Source: Candidatus Nanohaloarchaea archaeon
GTDB lineage: Archaea; Nanohalarchaeota; Nanosalinia; Nanosalinales; Nanosalinaceae
NCBI GenBank assembly: GCA_041640075.1
Contig: JBEQAY010000016.1
Coordinates: forward strand, 1-22,984
DNA length: 22,984 nucleotides
Reading direction: 5' to 3'
The position numbers and the translations under genes were made by a program. A model generated the notes under the pieces. It ran no database searches, was not told where the DNA came from, and saw only the letters and a list, made by a program, of their open reading frames with translations. Of the stretch, positions 1,251 to 18,304 are shown piece by piece (position 1 is the stretch's first letter; every line of letters begins with the position of its first letter).

Positions 1251-2224
1251 TGGCTCAGAAGGAAAAAATGAACATAGTTGAAGCTGTGAACGCGGCGCTT
1301 GAAGACGAGATGGAGGAAGATGAAGACGTCGTTGCATACGGAGAGGATGTAGGTGAGGATGGAGGAGTTTTCCGTGCCACCAAAGGTTTGCAGGACAAGT
1401 TCGGTGAGGATCGCTGTTTCTCAAGCCCTCTTGCTGAGTCAGGTATCGTGGGCACCGGGATCGGCATGAGCCTGTACGGTTTCAGGCCGGTGGTGGAGAT
1501 GCAGTTCTCAGGGTTCGGTTACCTTGCTTTCCATCAAATAAAGGAACATGCAGCACGTTTCCGGATCAGGAGCCGAGGAGACTACAACGTGCCGATGACC
1601 ATCAGGATGCCTTACGGAGGTGGTATAAACGCCCTCGAGCACCATCAGGAAAGTCCTGAAGCATTCTATTCTCACGCAGAAGGTCTTCACGTCGTGATCC
1701 CGAGCACACCGCAGGATACTTACTCTCTACTCAGGAAATCTATACAGCTCGACGATCCTGTGGTGTTCCTGGAGCCGAAGAAAACCTACAGAGCCTTCAA
1801 GGAAGAAGTTGACAGGGAAAAAGAAGTCGAGCTGGAGAACGCCCGTACAGTAAGAGATGGCTCAGACGTTACACTCATCGCTTGGGGAGCGATGATTCCT
1901 GTAGCAGAAGATGCTGCAGATGAGATAGATGCATCGGTTGAGATAATTGATCCGCGGACCATCTACCCTACAGACTTCGATGCTATAATTGAATCAGTGG
2001 AGAAGACAGGTAGAGCAATGGTTCTGCACGAGGCCGCGAAATCTGCAGGCTTTGGAGCAGAGATCGCGACAAGAATCCAGGAAAACGCTATTCTAAGCAT
2101 GGAGGCGCCTGTGGAACGTGTTACAGGCCCTGATGTGCCTTATCCGCTCTACACGCTGGAGGATTTCTACATGCCTAACAAGGAAAGGGCTGTAAACGGG
2201 CTTGAAAGAGTCCTCGATTTCTAG
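1250..2224 (+). CDS. pdhB: 2-oxoacid (pyruvate) dehydrogenase E1 beta subunit
   Basis: GEDVG..GGVFRAT.GL, PLAESGIVG, EMQFSGF, EHH.ESPE motifs. TAATG overlap with pdhA and a GAGGTG RBS. Confidence 0.93.
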   Translation: MAQKEKMNIVEAVNAALEDEMEEDEDVVAYGEDVGEDGGVFRATKGLQDKFGEDRCFSSPLAESGIVGTGIGMSLYGFRPVVEMQFSGFGYLAFHQIKEHAARFRIRSRGDYNVPMTIRMPYGGGINALEHHQESPEAFYSHAEGLHVVIPSTPQDTYSLLRKSIQLDDPVVFLEPKKTYRAFKEEVDREKEVELENARTVRDGSDVTLIAWGAMIPVAEDAADEIDASVEIIDPRTIYPTDFDAIIESVEKTGRAMVLHEAAKSAGFGAEIATRIQENAILSMEAPVERVTGPDVPYPLYTLEDFYMPNKERAVNGLERVLDF

Positions 2225-2255
2225 GTGATCAAAATGTATGAAACTAAATCAAGAA

Positions 2256-2315
2256 CCGGAGTGCATCCCTTAAGGATGTGCTACGCATGCTGAAACTTTG
2301 CGTGAAAGTTTCATG
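2256..2315 (+). promoter_or_regulatory. Two-hairpin leader element (copy 1) ending at the pdhC ATG
   Basis: Stem AGTGCATCC/GGATGTGCT (2260-2282), then TGAAACTTT/AAAGTTTCA (2291-2313). The same architecture precedes dnaJ. Confidence 0.6.
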
Positions 2316-3725
2316 AAGTTTGAATTCCCTGACACCGGCGAAGGAGTGACGGAAGGAAAGTTCCTGGACTGGAAAGTCGATGAAGGCGACGAGATAGAGG
2401 AAGATCAGGTTGTTGGGGAAGCAGAGACAGATAAAGCAGTTGTGGAAATTCCTGCGCCTGCTGATGGCCATGTGAAAAGTTTAAAGGCATCTCCTGGCGA
2501 TACAGTCGAAGTTGGAGATGTTATAATGGTGCTGGAAACAGAAGGTTCTGATGACGGAGAAACTGTAGAAGCAGACGAGAAAGAAGTGGAAGAACCACCT
2601 GAAGGACAGAAGGATAAACCAGATGGAGAAAAAGCAGCTAACAGTACTTCCGGTAGTAAAAATTCCTCAGAAAAAGTGCTTGCTCTTCCGAAAGTCCGGA
2701 AACTTGCCGAGAAGAAAAATGTAGATCTTTCTGCAATCAAGACCGGTGAGAGGATAACTGAGGAAGAAGTTCTCAGTGCTGCAGAATCTGGAGAAGGAGT
2801 TAAGGAAAAAGATTCAGAGGGCTCCAGAGATAGTTCTCAGCAGGAAGTTAAAGCAACTCCTTCCGTCCGTAAACTGGCAAGAGAGAAAGAAGTGGATATA
2901 GAAAGTATAGATGGCAGCGGCAGAGGTGGAAAAGTAACTAGGGAAGATGTAATAGATGCAACAAAGAGTAAGAAGAGTGGAGAAAGCTCTGGCGGAGATT
3001 CAAGAGAAGTAAGCCACTCTGTTGAATCCAGTAGAGAGACTGAAAGAGTGAAGATGTCGGGCATCAAAGAGAAAACTGCTGAACGTATGGCCGAATCCCG
3101 TTTCACAGCTCCCCATGTCACGCATGTGGAGAAAGCAGATGTTACAGAACTCAAAGAGCTGCGTGAAGAGGAGAAAGACGAAGTTGAACCGCATCTAACG
3201 TATCTTCCGTTCATCATGAAAGCTGTTACAGATGCTCTGAAAGACTATCCGGAACTGAACGCTGAGCTTGATACAGAAGAAGATGAGATAGTTCATAAAA
3301 AGTATTACGACTTTAACATCGCAGTTGATACCGAGCAAGGTTTGCTTGTACCACAGATAGAAGATGTGGACGATAAGAGCATAGTTGAACTTGCAGCAGA
3401 AATATCAAGAAAAGCTGAAAAGGCGAAAAGCGGAGATCTAACCGCAGATGAGATGGCAAACGGCACTTTCTCAATAACTAACCTTGGTGTAATCGGTGGA
3501 GAAGAATTCACCCCGATCATAAACTATCCACAGACTGCTATCCTAGGTATAGGTAAGATTTCAGAGACTGCTGAAGTTGTAGACGGTGAAGTAGTGCCTA
3601 GAACTACTGTAAAACTTTCTCTAAGCTACGATCACCGTGTTGTTGACGGTGCGACAGGTGCTAGATTCATGAATGAAGTCAAGGAAAACCTTGAAAATCC
3701 TGAAAAGATGCTTCTGGAGCTGTAG
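2313..3725 (+). CDS. pdhC: Dihydrolipoamide acetyltransferase E2 (one lipoyl domain, two PSBDs, catalytic domain)
   Basis: Lipoyl motif ETDKA, two subunit-binding repeats, catalytic DHRVVDG. ATG 2313 (MKFEFPDTGEG) is preferred to the TTG at 2298. Confidence 0.92.
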   Translation: MKFEFPDTGEGVTEGKFLDWKVDEGDEIEEDQVVGEAETDKAVVEIPAPADGHVKSLKASPGDTVEVGDVIMVLETEGSDDGETVEADEKEVEEPPEGQKDKPDGEKAANSTSGSKNSSEKVLALPKVRKLAEKKNVDLSAIKTGERITEEEVLSAAESGEGVKEKDSEGSRDSSQQEVKATPSVRKLAREKEVDIESIDGSGRGGKVTREDVIDATKSKKSGESSGGDSREVSHSVESSRETERVKMSGIKEKTAERMAESRFTAPHVTHVEKADVTELKELREEEKDEVEPHLTYLPFIMKAVTDALKDYPELNAELDTEEDEIVHKKYYDFNIAVDTEQGLLVPQIEDVDDKSIVELAAEISRKAEKAKSGDLTADEMANGTFSITNLGVIGGEEFTPIINYPQTAILGIGKISETAEVVDGEVVPRTTVKLSLSYDHRVVDGATGARFMNEVKENLENPEKMLLEL

Positions 3726-13167: not shown

Positions 13168-13264
13168 GGAGAGAAATCAGGAGATACTAGCTTATAAATT
13201 ATAACTCGCCGAGGTCTGGAGACCTGATTGGAAATATTTGAAAATTGACCTCAACCACCAACAT

Positions 13265-13783
13265 ATGAGCTACGAAGAACTCTCCCGCGAACAACTCATC
13301 GAAGCACTCAGAGAGATGGAGGAAAACTACGAAGAGGAAAGAGAGGAACGGGAAAGGTTCGAAAAACTCGCCAGGAAAACCAAAGCCGACTTCGAGAACT
13401 ACAAGAAGAAACAGGATGAAAGAAAGCAGCGCTGGCAGGATGAAGCCAAGCAAGAACTGGCAGAAGACCTGATCGAAGTCATGGACAACCTTGAAAGAGC
13501 ACTGATGGCAGCAGATGAGGAAACAGCAGTAGTACAAGGCGTGGAGATGGTCAACGATCAGCTCTACGATAAATTGAATCGTAAAGGACTTGAGATAATA
13601 GAAACGGAGGAAAAATTTGATCCAGAAGTACACAAAGCCGTTGATACCCGCAAACATGAAGAACACGAGCCAAAAACAATCCTGGAGGAGAAAAGAAAGG
13701 GTTACAGGTATGGGGAGAAAATTTTAAGGCCAGCAGAAGTGGTTGTGGCTGAAAAACCTAGAGAGGAACAAGATGAATCCTGA
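13265..13783 (+). CDS. grpE: Nucleotide exchange factor GrpE
   Basis: ADFENYKK, DNLERAL, FDPEVHKA, KGY...LRPAEVVV. ATG 13265 preferred. Confidence 0.93.
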   Translation: MSYEELSREQLIEALREMEENYEEEREERERFEKLARKTKADFENYKKKQDERKQRWQDEAKQELAEDLIEVMDNLERALMAADEETAVVQGVEMVNDQLYDKLNRKGLEIIETEEKFDPEVHKAVDTRKHEEHEPKTILEEKRKGYRYGEKILRPAEVVVAEKPREEQDES

Positions 13784-14048
13784 ATACATAAGCAGTAGAC
13801 TGGAAGAGGAAACAGCCGAACTGGACGGGGAAGAACTCAGACATGAGGCTGAAGCGATCCTGGACGAAGAAGATATCGATTACTCGAAAATAGGTGTTTC
13901 AGGCCTCGAAAAACCTGAGCACAAACAGCACAGCTACGAACTTGAAGTCGGAGGAGAAACATACCGTCTGGAAGTGATCCTCGCAGACGGGCGACCAGGC
14001 CACGAAGACGGCTCCATAAAACTTGAAGAGAAAAATGAGCTAGCTTAA
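13773..14048 (+). CDS. Hypothetical acidic protein (91 aa), coupled to grpE
   Basis: ATG 13773 overlaps the grpE 3' end with GAGG upstream; acidic composition. Confidence 0.7.
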   Translation: MNPEYISSRLEEETAELDGEELRHEAEAILDEEDIDYSKIGVSGLEKPEHKQHSYELEVGGETYRLEVILADGRPGHEDGSIKLEEKNELA

Positions 14049-14054
14049 AAATTT

Positions 14055-14555
14055 CTAATCCTTGAAAACTAGGTTAAGCCAGGTCTCTTCACCGAATCGT
14101 GGCTCATCGAAAATTTTTATCCTGTACGGTCTGACAACGTAAAACTCTGAATCAATATACTCCATTTCTTCAGGTTCAGAGACTTGCTCTTTCAGGCCAG
14201 GAAACCTTTCTGTGTAAGTTTTGAAGGCTTGTGAAACTTTCTCTTCATCCTCCAGTTTTTCCGCTTCTCCGAAGACCTGTAGACCTCTTTTATCGTCGCT
14301 CCATTCCTGTCGAGAGTCATAGATGGAGAGCGAGATCGAGGAGTTCTCCTCAATGTTCTTTCCGTGATCCGTGTCCGGCTCGGTCAGAATGTAAAAATTG
14401 AATTCGCCGTCGAATGCGAAAAATGCTGTCGCATTGAAGGCCTTCGAGTTTTCCGAGACTGTGGCCAGCGCCAGAAGTTCGTTTCTGCGGCAGATTTCTT
14501 CCAAACTTGCCTTTGCTTCCTCAAATGAAAAATTTTCTGTTTCCAGCAGCTTCAT
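14055..14555 (-). CDS. Pyridoxamine 5'-phosphate oxidase-like FMN-binding split-barrel protein
   Basis: LALATV, T.H.KNI..N..ISLSI and RGLQVFGEA motifs. Confidence 0.8.
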   Translation of the reverse strand: MKLLETENFSFEEAKASLEEICRRNELLALATVSENSKAFNATAFFAFDGEFNFYILTEPDTDHGKNIEENSSISLSIYDSRQEWSDDKRGLQVFGEAEKLEDEEKVSQAFKTYTERFPGLKEQVSEPEEMEYIDSEFYVVRPYRIKIFDEPRFGEETWLNLVFKD

Positions 14556-14657
14556 TACAATGTAAATTCTAGAGCAAACTCCAAAAAATTTCTCTCCAGT
14601 TCTCTATTTTTCTATTCCTGAATAAGAGAGTGTATAAAATGATAATGTAAGCAATTT

Positions 14658-15086
14658 CTAGTTTGACTCCATATTCAGTATAAGCTCGATATCCTCATCT
14701 GCATCTTCATCAATTTTGGCAGCTTTTCTGGCAGATTGTTCCAAGTCTTTGAGCTCGCCCGTCATTATCTCAAAATCTTTTTCAAGCTCCTGAAGAGCCT
14801 GATGTATTTCCTGGATGTCCCCTAGAGCGTCTTTCAGAAACTGAAGTTCCTCTTTATCTACACTCTTGCCTCTAGCTATATCCCTTAAAACTCTGTCCAA
14901 TCTATTTTGATTCTCTAACTCATGTAGATCCTCATCCATTTGTTTATCAGCTTTCTCCGCAGTTTGAACCATTTCCTCCAACTTTGGTAACGCCTCCTGT
15001 AGATTTTGATCGAATTCAACTAGGTTTCCGACATCCTTCTTCAGGTTTTTAGCTGCTTTCTGCTCGTCCTTACCTCTAATTGCCAT
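14658..15086 (-). CDS. Hypothetical coiled-coil protein
   Basis: All-helical, heptad-like and acidic; GGGAAACTTTTTTTA promoter upstream. Confidence 0.7.
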   Translation of the reverse strand: MAIRGKDEQKAAKNLKKDVGNLVEFDQNLQEALPKLEEMVQTAEKADKQMDEDLHELENQNRLDRVLRDIARGKSVDKEELQFLKDALGDIQEIHQALQELEKDFEIMTGELKDLEQSARKAAKIDEDADEDIELILNMESN

Positions 15087-15220
15087 AATCTACAGTTATC
15101 GAATTTTTCATAAAAAAAGTTTCCCGATCAGTATACTTCACAATCTTAAAACGAGTAGAAACAACTGGTTTAAAAATTTTTATTCACGTAAACAAAAACA
15201 TAACTAGGTGTTATTCTAAA

Positions 15221-17131
15221 ATGAGCAGAATTATCGGGATCGACTTGGGAACGACAAGAAGCGCAATGGCAACAATAGAGGACGGAGAGCCTAAAATCAT
15301 CGAAAACAAGGAAGGTGAAAGAGTTACTCCTTCCGTAGTAGGTTTTGACGACGGTGAGCGACTCGTCGGGAAGCCTGCGAAGAACCAGTTGCTGACGAAC
15401 AAGGAAAATACTGTAAAGTCGATCAAGCGGCACATGGGAGAGGACTATGATGTAAATCTTGATGGAGAAGATTACACTCCGCAGGAAATCTCCTCTATGA
15501 TTCTGCAGAAGCTGAAAAATGATGCAGAGGACAAGCTCGGCGACGATGTCGAGAAAGCTGTAATCACAGTTCCTGCTCACTTCGACGACACTCAGAGGCA
15601 GGCTACAAAGGACGCTGCAGAGATCGCAGGTCTTGAAGCAGAGAGAATTCTGAACGAGCCGACCGCAGCAGCTCTAGCATACGGGCTGGATGATGAAAGC
15701 GAGAAAACTGTACTTGTATACGACTTCGGAGGAGGAACCTTCGACGTCACAGTCCTAGAGATGGGAGACGGAATCTACGAAGTCCAGAGCACCGAGGGAG
15801 ACAACGATCTCGGAGGAGATGACTTCGACGAGAAGATCGTTGACTACCTGCTTGAAGAGTTCGAGGACGAGCACGGAGTTGATCTCCGAGAATCAGATGA
15901 AGCTATGCAGCGTTTGAGAGAGAACGCTGAAGAGGCCAAGAAAGAGCTCTCCTCCCGTGAATCCACAAAGATCAACATACCGTTCATCTACCAGGAGGGC
16001 GGCGAGACATACAACCTCGACCAAGAACTGACGAGAAGCAGGTTTGAAGATTTAGTTGAGGATCTCATCCAGAGAACTACAGATCCGACAAAGAAGGCTA
16101 TGAACGACGCCGGCGTGAACTCCGGAGACCTCGACGAGGTCATCCTTGTCGGAGGTACGACACGTGTCCCTGCTGTCAGAGAGCACGTGCAAGCCATCAC
16201 AGGCCTCCAGCCGGATAAAAGTGTAAGCCCTGACGAAGCAGTTGCCCTGGGAGCATCGATCCAGGCAGGAAGCATGGAAGGCGAAATGGAAGACATTCTG
16301 CTACTCGACGTAGCACCTCTCTCACTTGGAGTAGAGGTCAAGGGAGGTCTCACAGAAACACTGATTGAGGAGAACACCACGATCCCGGCAGAGGAATCGA
16401 AAACTTTCACGACAGCCCAGGACAACCAGTCCGTCGTGACCGTACACGTCGTCCAGGGAGAACGTGAGATGGCAAAGGACAACAAGTCTCTCGGGCAGTT
16501 CAATCTTGAAGGACTACCGCCAGCACCTGCTGGACAGCCTCAGATCGAGGTAACTTTCGAGATCGACTCAGACGGTATCCTGAACGTCTCCGCAGAGGAA
16601 CAGCAGAGCGGAGAATCAGCCTCCATCACTATCGAGGATCAGGCCCGATTAGACGACGAAGAAATCGAGGAGATGAAGGAGGAAGCAGAGAAGCACGCAG
16701 AAGAAGACGAAAAAAGAAGAGAGTTCATCGAAGCAAAGAACAAGGCCGACCAGATCATCTCGCAGGGCCGCGACCAGCTTGAAGAGCACGGAGACAAAGT
16801 CGACGACTCCCTAGTCGAAGGTATCGAGATGCAGCTGAATGAACTGGAGGACTTCCGTGAAGACGTAGAGCTTGAGGAAAGCGAGGAACTTCAGGAGAAA
16901 GTCACAGAAGTCGAGGAGAAGCTCCAGGAGATCGGTCAGGAAATCTACGGCGGAGAAGACGGCGCTCCCGGTGGAATGGAAGGCATGGGTGCAGAAGGAT
17001 TCGATCCAAGCAACATGAGCGAGGAAGACCTGAAGCAGGCAGCCCAGAACATGGGAGCAGGCTCAGGCGACGATGTCGTCGACGCAGACTTCGAAGAAGT
17101 AGACACAGAAGACGAGGAGAAAGAGGAATAA
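15221..17131 (+). CDS. dnaK: Hsp70 chaperone DnaK
   Basis: [38 protein letters not shown]-terminal [18 protein letters not shown]. Confidence 0.98.
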
Positions 17132-17165
17132 TGCTCCTCTCCTCCTCTTTTCAAAATCTCCATAA

Positions 17166-17230
17166 CATCACCGAAGTGCGTTCAGCTTCTCTGAACGTGC
17201 TCTGGTGATGAAACTTCCAGAAGTTTCATG
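17166..17230 (+). promoter_or_regulatory. Two-hairpin leader element (copy 2) ending at the dnaJ ATG
   Basis: Stem AGTGCGTTCAG/CTGAACGTGCT (17175-17201) closed by CATCACC/GGTGATG, then ATGAAACTT/AAGTTTCAT (17208-17229). Confidence 0.6.
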
Positions 17231-18304
17231 GCGAAAGAATACTACGATCTTCTCGGCGTAAGTGAAGACGCAAACCAGGATGAGATCAAGAAGGCTTACA
17301 GGAAGAAGGCGAAAAAATACCATCCTGACTCCAACAAGGATTCAGCCGATGAGGAGAAGTTCAAGAAGATCAACAAGGCGTATGACGTTCTCTCGGACGA
17401 GAATAAGCGTAAAAAATATGATAAATTTGGAAAACAGGGAGTTGAAGGTAGCTCCAGTAGAGGAAAGAGGCGGGCCTCCGCCAATTTCCAGGATATCTTC
17501 GAGCAGATCTTCGGCGGCGGAAGAGGACGTCGTGGAAGCAGAGAGGCTCAGGGAGAAAACCTGAAGGTTCAGACGACTATCTCTCTGGAAGAGGCCTATA
17601 AAGGGGTTGAGAAAACCTTCAAGGTCTCGAGGAAATCCGAGTGCGCCGAATGCGATGGTTCAGGCGCAGAAGACGGTAATACTTCTACATGCTCCAACTG
17701 TAATGGTCAGGGGAAAGTTGAACAGGTAAGGCGAACTCCTCTGGGGAGAGCTCGCCAGGTAACCGAGTGTCCTGAGTGTAACGGTACAGGAGATATTCCA
17801 GAGACCAAGTGTTCTGAATGTAATGGTTCAGGTATAACAGAAAAAGAGGATGAGATCACTGTTGACATACCTGAAGGAGTAAAAGATGGACAGAGGCTTA
17901 GAGTCAAAGGAAAAGGCCATACAGCAAGAAACGGTAATTCTGGAGATCTTTATATCTTTGTAAGTGTTGAACCTCATGATTCTCTGGAAAGACGTGATTC
18001 AGATCTATATACAACAGTCAAGGTCGGTGTAGGGGATGCCGCACTGGGTACTCAGGTTGAAGTACCACATCCAGAGTCCACTATTTCTGTAGACGTTCCT
18101 GCAGGCACACAACCTGGACAGGTGATGCGTGTAGAAGGCAAAGGATTCCCGAGTGGCTGGGGTTCAGGCGATCTATATGTTAAAGTAGACGTCGACATAC
18201 CGAGCGAGCTGACTGAAGAACAGGAAGAAGTTATGGAGGAACTCAGAGAAACTGAAAGTAATGAGAAAAACTTCTTCGAATCAGTCAAGGACTTCATCAG
18301 CTGA
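17228..18304 (+). CDS. dnaJ: Chaperone DnaJ
   Basis: J-domain HPD, four CxxCxGxG repeats, C-terminal GDLY motifs. Confidence 0.97.

Follow-up and report, generated by a model that had tools for sequence, protein, structure and literature searches.

The window, i.e., the whole stretch of 22,984 nt that was analyzed, is contig C16 of genome G000, which has a size of 980 kb, a GC content of 46%, and a completeness of 89%. Two copies of a short hairpin repeat are situated on its forward strand, one ahead of pdhC (2256–2315) and one ahead of dnaJ (17171–17230), and both agreed letter for letter with the copies quoted in an earlier, sequence-only reading of this DNA. The features at the two junctions are collected in Table 1. 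The pattern TGAAACTT-N-AAGTTTC matched the window exclusively at these two copies (4 strand matches versus 0.01 expected). Among the 13 small ORFs of the window, Pfam named no mobile-element protein. Between grpE and dnaK (13238–15221) lie three ORFs, of which one is forward and two are reverse; one of the three is PPOX-like. No known RNA family had been recognized in the sequence-only reading, and indeed an Rfam scan of the window yielded no match at the gathering score; with eight loci, Rfam returned tRNAs only, plus isrA at 21 bits (cut-off 51).

Table 1. Features at the pdhB-pdhC and dnaK-dnaJ junctions of the window
Feature	Coordinates	Strand	Basis
Shine-Dalgarno (SD)-like GGTGATC, the original SD-like motif of pdhC; shares bases with the pdhB stop and is likewise found at empty junctions	2224..2230	+	sequence, orthologous junctions
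Upstream ORF of 19 codons; starts after the old SD, spans hairpin 1, TGA at 2291-2293 within the module, 19 nt 5′ of the pdhC ATG	2234..2293	+	
Stretch that a close relative with the empty allele has exchanged for 4 nt; the insert amounts to roughly 79 nt net	2236..2318	+	joint 2235-2319, runs X2 and X3
Hairpin 1, AGTGC subtype, pdhC copy	2260..2282	+	folding, subtype survey
Terminal module, pdhC copy	2283..2312	+	pattern and covariation
Stem A of pdhC module: ACGCA / TGCGT; linker TGCT 2288-2291	2283-2287 / 2299-2303	+	
Stem B of pdhC module: GAAACTT / AAGTTTC; loop with weak GTGA	2292-2298 / 2306-2312	+	
pdhC (dihydrolipoyl acetyltransferase), ATG flush with module end	2313..3725	+	
Terminator-like hairpin plus 3′ T run, lying over the dnaK stop; outside the repeat	17114..17149	+	consensus match only
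Upstream ORF of 25 codons; overlaps the dnaK stop (TAATG), ends at the TGA of the module TGAT, 19 nt 5′ of the dnaJ ATG	17131..17208	+	
Hairpin 1, AGTGC subtype, dnaJ copy	17175..17201	+	folding, subtype survey
Terminal module, dnaJ copy	17202..17227	+	pattern and covariation
Stem A of dnaJ module: CTGG / CCAG; TGAT 17206-17209	17202-17205 / 17217-17220	+	
Stem B of dnaJ module: GAAACTT / AAGTTTC	17210-17216 / 17221-17227	+	
dnaJ, ATG flush with module end	17228..18304	+	

Folding of 61-nt pieces gave z-scores of −3.39 (pdhC) and −5.12 (dnaJ), and none of 200 shuffled sequences reached an equal value. The start codon had been described as covered by the second stem; however, no more than its first 1–2 bases are paired. 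The description as two hairpins turned out to be incomplete, because a further stem had been overlooked, in which the loop of hairpin 2 is paired with the 4–5 nt located 5′ of TG(A/C)T. This stem (ACGCA/TGCGT at pdhC, CTGG/CCAG at dnaJ) covaries across the repeat family. The tandem G.U pair and the CUU loop that had been pointed out are real in both copies, but they mark just one subtype of hairpin 1, the AGTGC subtype, present in 14 of 170 distinct modules. Loops vary within this subtype, which occurs at tRNA sites as well as at start codons. In a close relative, the exchange G2263A turns one G.U pair into an A-U pair.

As an alternative, the sequence-only reading had proposed a small dispersed repeat family, and this was borne out by copies across the Nanohaloarchaeota. 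In 70 genomes of the phylum, the pattern TGATSRAACTN{4,11}AGTTYS was used for the terminal (right) module, N3-5-TGAT-SRAACTN-N′-AGTTYS, and retrieved 198 matches in 48 genomes, compared to 12 matches of the reversed pattern as a control. A left module, a(6)-G-TTACG-CT-a′-N1-4-CGYAA, was matched 185 times in 44 of the 70 genomes (2 control matches). In G000 itself, seven right modules were recognized by inspection in a relaxed search, i.e., the two in the window and five that precede genes for tRNA Gly (twice), Leu (twice), and His. A loose descriptor gave 18 matches and 21 control matches in G000 and was discarded. The commonest variant yielded 39 matches in one genome per prokaryotic species, of which 28 were from Nanohaloarchaeota, 9 from entries named "uncultured archaeon", and 2 from bacteria, the latter both devoid of hairpin 1. 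This distribution suggests that the window, too, derives from the Nanohaloarchaeota. A stricter variant was matched 28 times in metagenomes, mostly at tRNA genes. Viral contigs yielded chance-level numbers only, with both stems of the right module in 5 of 51 matches and a covarying stem of the left module in 4 of 120 among the matches listed, none of them with element context.

No description of this nanohaloarchaeal repeat family was found in the literature searched, in which subscription papers were thinly covered. Nanohaloarchaeal tRNA introns and five ncRNAs, and not these repeats, are noted in the accessible portion of PMC10266531, and both module motifs are absent from the five ncRNAs as far as its supplement displays them (by eye). 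"Nanohalo" occurs nowhere in the accessible text of PMC13343696, and the available part of a paper on Rep-Arvir origins (PMC13107129) revealed no connection to the repeat.

That the motifs are short, and that the viral matches stay at chance level, would fit chance hairpins or an assembly artefact. Both are extremely improbable, however, in view of the low expectation for the window, the excess over the control in the phylum, the copies in complete genomes, and the presence of the pdhC copy with two pairing-neutral changes on a contig from an independent run.

The anatomy of the ends was analyzed with modules extracted from the fetched loci. Their number was 137, or 135 after two without hairpin 1 (L088, L106) had been dropped; L146 and L149 were also dropped from some of the later counts. 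Stem B (SRAACTN with N′AGTTYS) belonged to the search filter, and thus its covariation is partly by construction, but in an unfiltered listing about 140 of 150 among the matches listed were Watson-Crick at both variable pairs, as judged by eye. Stem A is outside the filter and is formed by the three bases 5′ of TGAT and the three bases after SRAACTN. Of the 135 copies, 105 form all three pairs, whereas shuffled sets gave a mean of 21 and never more than 35; counted by distinct 3-mer combinations, 23 of 48 are paired (3.9 after shuffling). Kinship of the copies inflates such shuffle tests. In 84 distinct 28-mers, 90% of the stem A cells pair, two-sided changes occur at all three pairs, and pairing of the whole structure amounts to 97%, compared to 17–56% in slid registers. 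G.T pairs account for just 7 of the 365 paired cells at the three positions of stem A.

Stems A and B interlock as an H-type pseudoknot, the alternative being a switch between two hairpins. As loop 3 comprises only 0–1 nt in the commonest variant, on steric grounds both stems should not be able to form fully at the same time, so partial pairing or a two-hairpin switch is more likely for this variant than a full pseudoknot. In the left module, a and a′ pair at no fewer than 5 of 6 positions (at least 5) in 31 of 36 distinct copies (shuffle mean 8.9, maximum 15), and read on the opposite strand this module is a mirror of the right module. Each of the two kinds of end module has two covarying stems, and one to several variable hairpins lie between the ends. 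Outward-facing pairs (left-right or right-right) are mostly 75–152 bp long, with two of 207 and 275 bp, and contain no gene; a search out to 3 kb revealed no larger two-ended unit. The ends share a terminal inverted match of only 4–6 bp. Many copies have one end module only, and neither window copy has a left module. The strand asymmetry of hairpin 1 is weak and mixed. The invariance of TGAT, AACT/AGTT, and GTTACGCT, together with the covarying stems in five families, suggests that the ends are read by a specific protein. Box C/D or K-turn RNAs (fixed boxes RUGAUGA and CUGA) do not fit, given that the sequence following TGAT is variable and covaries with the 3′ end; hammerhead, pistol, twister, and HDV-like cores were rejected on account of the same variability.

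The insertion sites were classified for 111 modules, i.e., all rows of the loci fetched by the pattern alone (L082–L191), which represent about half of the 198 matches and favor copy-rich genomes. At tRNA genes or tRNA fragments, 82 copies were found: 39 were flush with a tRNA end (25 at the 5′ end, 14 in antisense orientation at the 3′ end), 19 were in introns, 16 were within 150 nt of a tRNA, and 8 were followed by a tRNA fragment. Five were at start codons, 3 at SD motifs, and 21 remained unassigned. Whether copies always abut an ATG had been put forward as a check, and the answer is no, as only these 8 of the 111 are at starts or SDs. Equally, random placement had been thought to identify a selfish repeat; this was too simple, since the copies are non-random and abut the ends of RNA genes and start codons to the base. 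All 17 copies in antisense orientation at tRNA 3′ ends overlap the last 1–2 bases of the tRNA, and the internal SR of the module matches in 16 of them. Both orientations occur at each class of site, and the flanking dinucleotides varied.

A strict bulge-helix-bulge (BHB) motif was present in 11 of 20 element-bearing introns, with the module end 0–2 nt away in all 11, and absent from the other 9; in several introns, the two element ends pair with one another as the upper stem of the BHB. By eye, no BHB motif was seen at the mRNA junction and duplicated tRNA ends. In genome G028, the same antisense element lies inside the T loop of two different tRNA genes (L126, L128), and a BHB found by eye would restore the loop. 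This is likely to represent a recent gain of a non-canonical intron, as judged from the sequences.

Further observations concern the surroundings of the repeat. A single SD site before a large gene, which we take from its translated N-terminus to encode the large subunit of PolD, is filled by three variants in three genomes (G000:C25:4110-4290, L116, L167). The names rpl3, rps3, rpoB, atpE, rplP0, and polD were likewise assigned from translated N-termini and are presumptive. Tandem arrays occur at L117, L083, L494, and L504, with units of 111–133 bp that consist of the element and a tRNA end or tRNA-like piece. In the 5′ flanks of tRNA genes on G000 contigs C3, C8, C13, and C6, another small hairpin repeat, of the GCAAATCTT-CGATTT type, pairs into the first tRNA bases, and several partial copies of the 3′ end of the tRNA-Gly on C3 lie downstream of that gene.

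Orthologous loci revealed gain and loss. At the pdhB-pdhC junction, the module was present in 4 of 30 loci, in four different variants, and absent from 26, which mostly have a tight junction and in a few cases other inserts. The four filled loci are on separate branches, two of them being sisters of empty loci from the same genus, and the pdhC tree (a quick tree with 29 rows) contains 4 changes, at least 3 of which are forced by well-supported branches. In a public contig with 96% identity across a 336-nt portion of the pdhB end, 4 nt take the place of positions 2236–2318. Another public contig, from an independent run, contains the element with A2260G and G2263A, both of which are compatible with pairing. 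At most of the pdhB-pdhC junctions L024–L051, the GGTGA SD is followed by ATT, ATA, ATC, TTG, or CTG at the position of the pdhC start, which suggests from sequence that non-AUG initiation is frequent in this lineage. At dnaJ, the module was found in 14 of 30 loci and was flush with the start in 11; dnaK lies within 330 nt at 22 of the loci, which include all 14. Either the insertion is old or the site has repeatedly been refilled.

These distributions bear on the proposal of the sequence-only reading that a dedicated cis-regulatory RNA (an attenuator, a thermometer, or a protein-binding site) evolved for pdhC and dnaJ. The stable folds that take in the first ATG bases and the frequency of the module at dnaJ would agree with such an RNA, as would the wobble pairs of the start-codon copies, which lean weakly toward the transcribed strand (16 versus 7). 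However, most copies are at tRNA genes and very few at starts or SDs, many are antisense to their transcript, the type of hairpin 1 differs among dnaJ orthologues, and the pdhC copy is missing both from the great majority of orthologous loci and from the 96%-identical relative. A cis-regulatory origin of the two copies is therefore very unlikely, and for the whole family this interpretation is largely refuted.

Target duplications were the second trace of mobility. With a threshold score of at least 24, a direct repeat of the 3′ flank was found upstream of 38 of 135 copies, compared to 6 of 135 for a control segment; 97 copies were below the threshold, and neither window copy has a clear duplication. 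Clear duplications are 15–26 bp long and variable in length. They have 20 bp at L143 and 18–21 bp over the SD at L167 and L116, comprise the T arm and the 3′ end of the tRNA at L170, L158, L120, and L179, and comprise the 5′ end of the tRNA, in antisense orientation, at L096, L133, and L171. Often 5–8 nt beside one element end are imperfect in the duplicates. In the dead duplicates of L094, L170, L171, L179, L183, and L012, these nucleotides often begin with GTTCA, even away from T loops, and such linkers are possibly flank carried along from the donor site.

Long duplications with imperfect linkers could also arise in the absence of a dedicated enzyme, if stalled forks switched template between hairpin loci by microhomology and returned 15–26 bp behind, as has been proposed for organellar palindromic repeats. 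Mosaic interiors, tandem arrays, the lack of a detected transposase, and one empty pdhC junction that is module-like (SD TGAT ... AGTTCG) are in line with this. Slippage would, however, hardly produce base-exact flush placement, the invariant motifs and covarying stems in five families suggest a specific protein, and we regard template switching as unlikely.

Somewhat less probable still is a SINE-like RNA route, in which excised tRNA introns or read-through transcripts would be re-ligated or reverse-transcribed and then inserted. It would explain insertions that exactly abut the ends of mature RNAs and the borders of introns, the long variable duplications with 1–2 nt of microhomology and imperfect linkers of 5–8 nt, and the many copies with a single end module. 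It is at variance with both orientations at every class of site, with the almost purely Watson-Crick covariation of stems A and B, and with the distribution of reverse transcriptase (RT), which was found in 7 of 70 genomes, not in G000, and never near a module. Taken together, the occurrence of both orientations, the mirror-like ends, and the nearly pure Watson-Crick covariation indicate a process at the level of DNA.

The two window copies are right ends of a gene-less nanohaloarchaeal repeat, which is probably a non-autonomous mobile element that is moved in trans via folded single-stranded ends. Each end would fold on single-stranded DNA, and an internal segment of 6–7 nt would pair with the terminal bases of the element and in many cases with 1–3 target bases, which resembles the guide sequences that define the ends of IS608. 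An enzyme acting in trans would then join the element at staggered positions 15–26 bp apart. As insertion of the IS200/IS605 type leaves no duplication, the guide analogy and the observed duplications suggest chemistries that differ from one another, which speaks against this explanation. Insertions would persist only where the duplication rebuilds a tRNA or a gene start, or where a BHB permits splicing; at tRNA genes, pairing of the two ends as the upper stem of a BHB would allow the insert to be spliced out as a tRNA intron.

The mobilizing enzyme was searched for in the same genomes. G000 contains no match for Y1 transposase, TnpB, Cas1, RT, or GIY-YIG, and in the phylum these families are patchy (Y1_Tnp 4/70, TnpB 14/70 over the cut-off, Cas1 3/70, RT in the few genomes mentioned above, GIY-YIG 10/70 over the cut-off). 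A module was found near none of 47 Y1_Tnp, TnpB, Cas1, RVT_1, or GIY-YIG loci, a search that lies outside the DDE, IS110, tyrosine, and serine recombinases. Genome G039 has the most left modules (23) and intact Y1 transposases, and G008 has 19 right modules and no Y1; no link is shown by this.

An ORF that reaches the module was present at 19 of 22 resolvable operon junctions, compared to 10.8 expected by shuffles (fixed start rule, 24 junctions tried, 2 unresolved; P = 0.0002, a value that is overstated because 12 of the 22 junctions are dnaJ orthologues and not independent). Of these 19 ORFs, 18 stop between −5 and +17 of TGAT. An SD-like GGTG in the terminal loop was found in 9 of 19 start-codon copies and in 1 of 84 tRNA copies, which are not independent of one another. 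At dnaJ, the upstream ORF also traverses the terminator-like hairpin over the dnaK stop. At pdhC and dnaJ, translation from the old start would follow the upstream ORF, cross hairpin 1, and end at a stop codon within the module; there, stem B would be melted by the ribosome and the real start codon would become accessible. In Haloferax volcanii, reinitiation amounts to 40–60% at distances of 13–14 nt and is near zero at 22–23 nt, according to the available part of PMC10666635. The distance of 19 nt between stop and start in the window is close to the one at which reinitiation is lost, and it would be likelier that the ribosome, on terminating, opens stem B than that it reinitiates directly. 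It is likely that the host tolerates the element at operon junctions since the short reading frame carries ribosomes across. A secondary translational effect of the copies, above all at dnaJ, is plausible from the sequences, and exaptation of the dnaJ copy, as an addition to the mobile-element explanation, is conceivable but rather doubtful.

Comparison with known systems revealed partial similarities. Like MITEs, the element is short, non-coding, dispersed, and variable between strains. It differs from them in the length and variability of its duplications, which are not short and fixed, in the very short match of its ends, and in the lack of an ORF-bearing partner among the loci examined, with DDE families outside the search. 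Presence or absence between strains is shared also with the SMRs of Haloquadratum, which lack a target duplication according to the accessible text of PMC3119063 (on prokaryotic MITEs, see also PMC11602168). The element resembles PATEs and the ends of IS200-IS605 elements in that it is gene-less and has near-terminal palindromes at both ends and no long terminal inverted repeat. It further resembles IS608 in the ability of an internal segment to base-pair with the terminus; the cleavage sites of IS608 are recognized by pairing with guide sequences, as described in the available part of PMC3201880. IS605-type elements and Haloquadratum PATEs leave no target duplication, again as far as the accessible portion of PMC3119063 goes, in contrast to the long duplications at 38 of 135 copies; moreover, pairing with the target involves only 1–3 nt, and insertion is not confined to positions 3′ of a fixed motif of 4–5 nt. 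PATEs also do not share the strict sites at tRNA ends, intron borders, and starts. The ends are unlike the 3′ ends of 7 TnpB elements from the phylum, and a module was present at 0 of 14 TnpB and 0 of 6 TnpA loci.

With REP/RAYT and NTS/Ssn systems, as presented in the accessible part of PMC11893778, the element has in common that the hairpin repeats are oriented, bear a conserved motif at their flank, and are probably read as single-stranded DNA. Unlike these, it has a low copy number and exact tRNA and start-codon sites, and a repeat-flanked nuclease gene was found at 0 of 16 GIY-YIG and 0 of 6 Y1 loci (Pfam, which divergent nucleases may escape). Like the present element, the double-hairpin elements of fungi are short palindromic modules that merge and shuffle. 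Similarly, the GC clusters of yeast mitochondria, in the part of PMC4478555 available, are short, merging palindromic modules with quick turnover at orthologous sites and no known mobilizer, but they are organellar, the GC42 target has 2 nt, and pseudoknot-type ends are not described there. BHB motifs were seen at element-bearing inserts located at 37/38 and inside the T loop, which recalls archaeal tRNA introns (PMC3293823 and bioRxiv 10.64898/2026.10.13.758758, in their accessible portions). The near-identical intron in two tRNA genes (L126, L128) likewise recalls intron transposition, but in contrast to known archaeal tRNA introns, the intron body is a repeat that is also encountered, in both orientations, away from tRNAs. 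When casposons and tRNA-targeting integrative elements insert at the end of a tRNA gene, a long duplication restores that gene. The element described here shares this behavior with them, but it has only about 80 bp, no gene, and no long terminal inverted repeat, and no module lies near Cas1. In summary, the element acts as a short non-autonomous mobile repeat, yet it departs from MITEs, PATEs, REP/Ssn repeats, and casposons in their defining properties.

As a tentative proposal that goes well beyond the mobile-element explanation itself, the repeat may represent a new class of gene-less mobile DNA. Its pseudoknot ends would base-pair with the target, insertion would be flush with RNA-gene boundaries and generate long duplications, the BHB upper stem would found tRNA introns, stops and an SD loop would keep operons translated, and the enzyme would be outside the known transposase families.

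According to the available part of a preprint on Asgard introns (bioRxiv 10.64898/2026.10.13.758758), it is an open question by which route tRNA introns are acquired in archaea. The repeat may be a source of such introns, and because a repeat that also resides outside tRNAs in both orientations makes up many introns here, with filled and empty alleles, and the lineage has cultured members, intron origin becomes testable. The covarying ends are defined substrates for finding an enzyme that joins single-stranded DNA. For annotation, hairpins of this kind ahead of DPANN start codons should not be called riboswitches. The start-codon copies illustrate the way in which inserts at the junctions of essential operons are accommodated in a highly compact genome.
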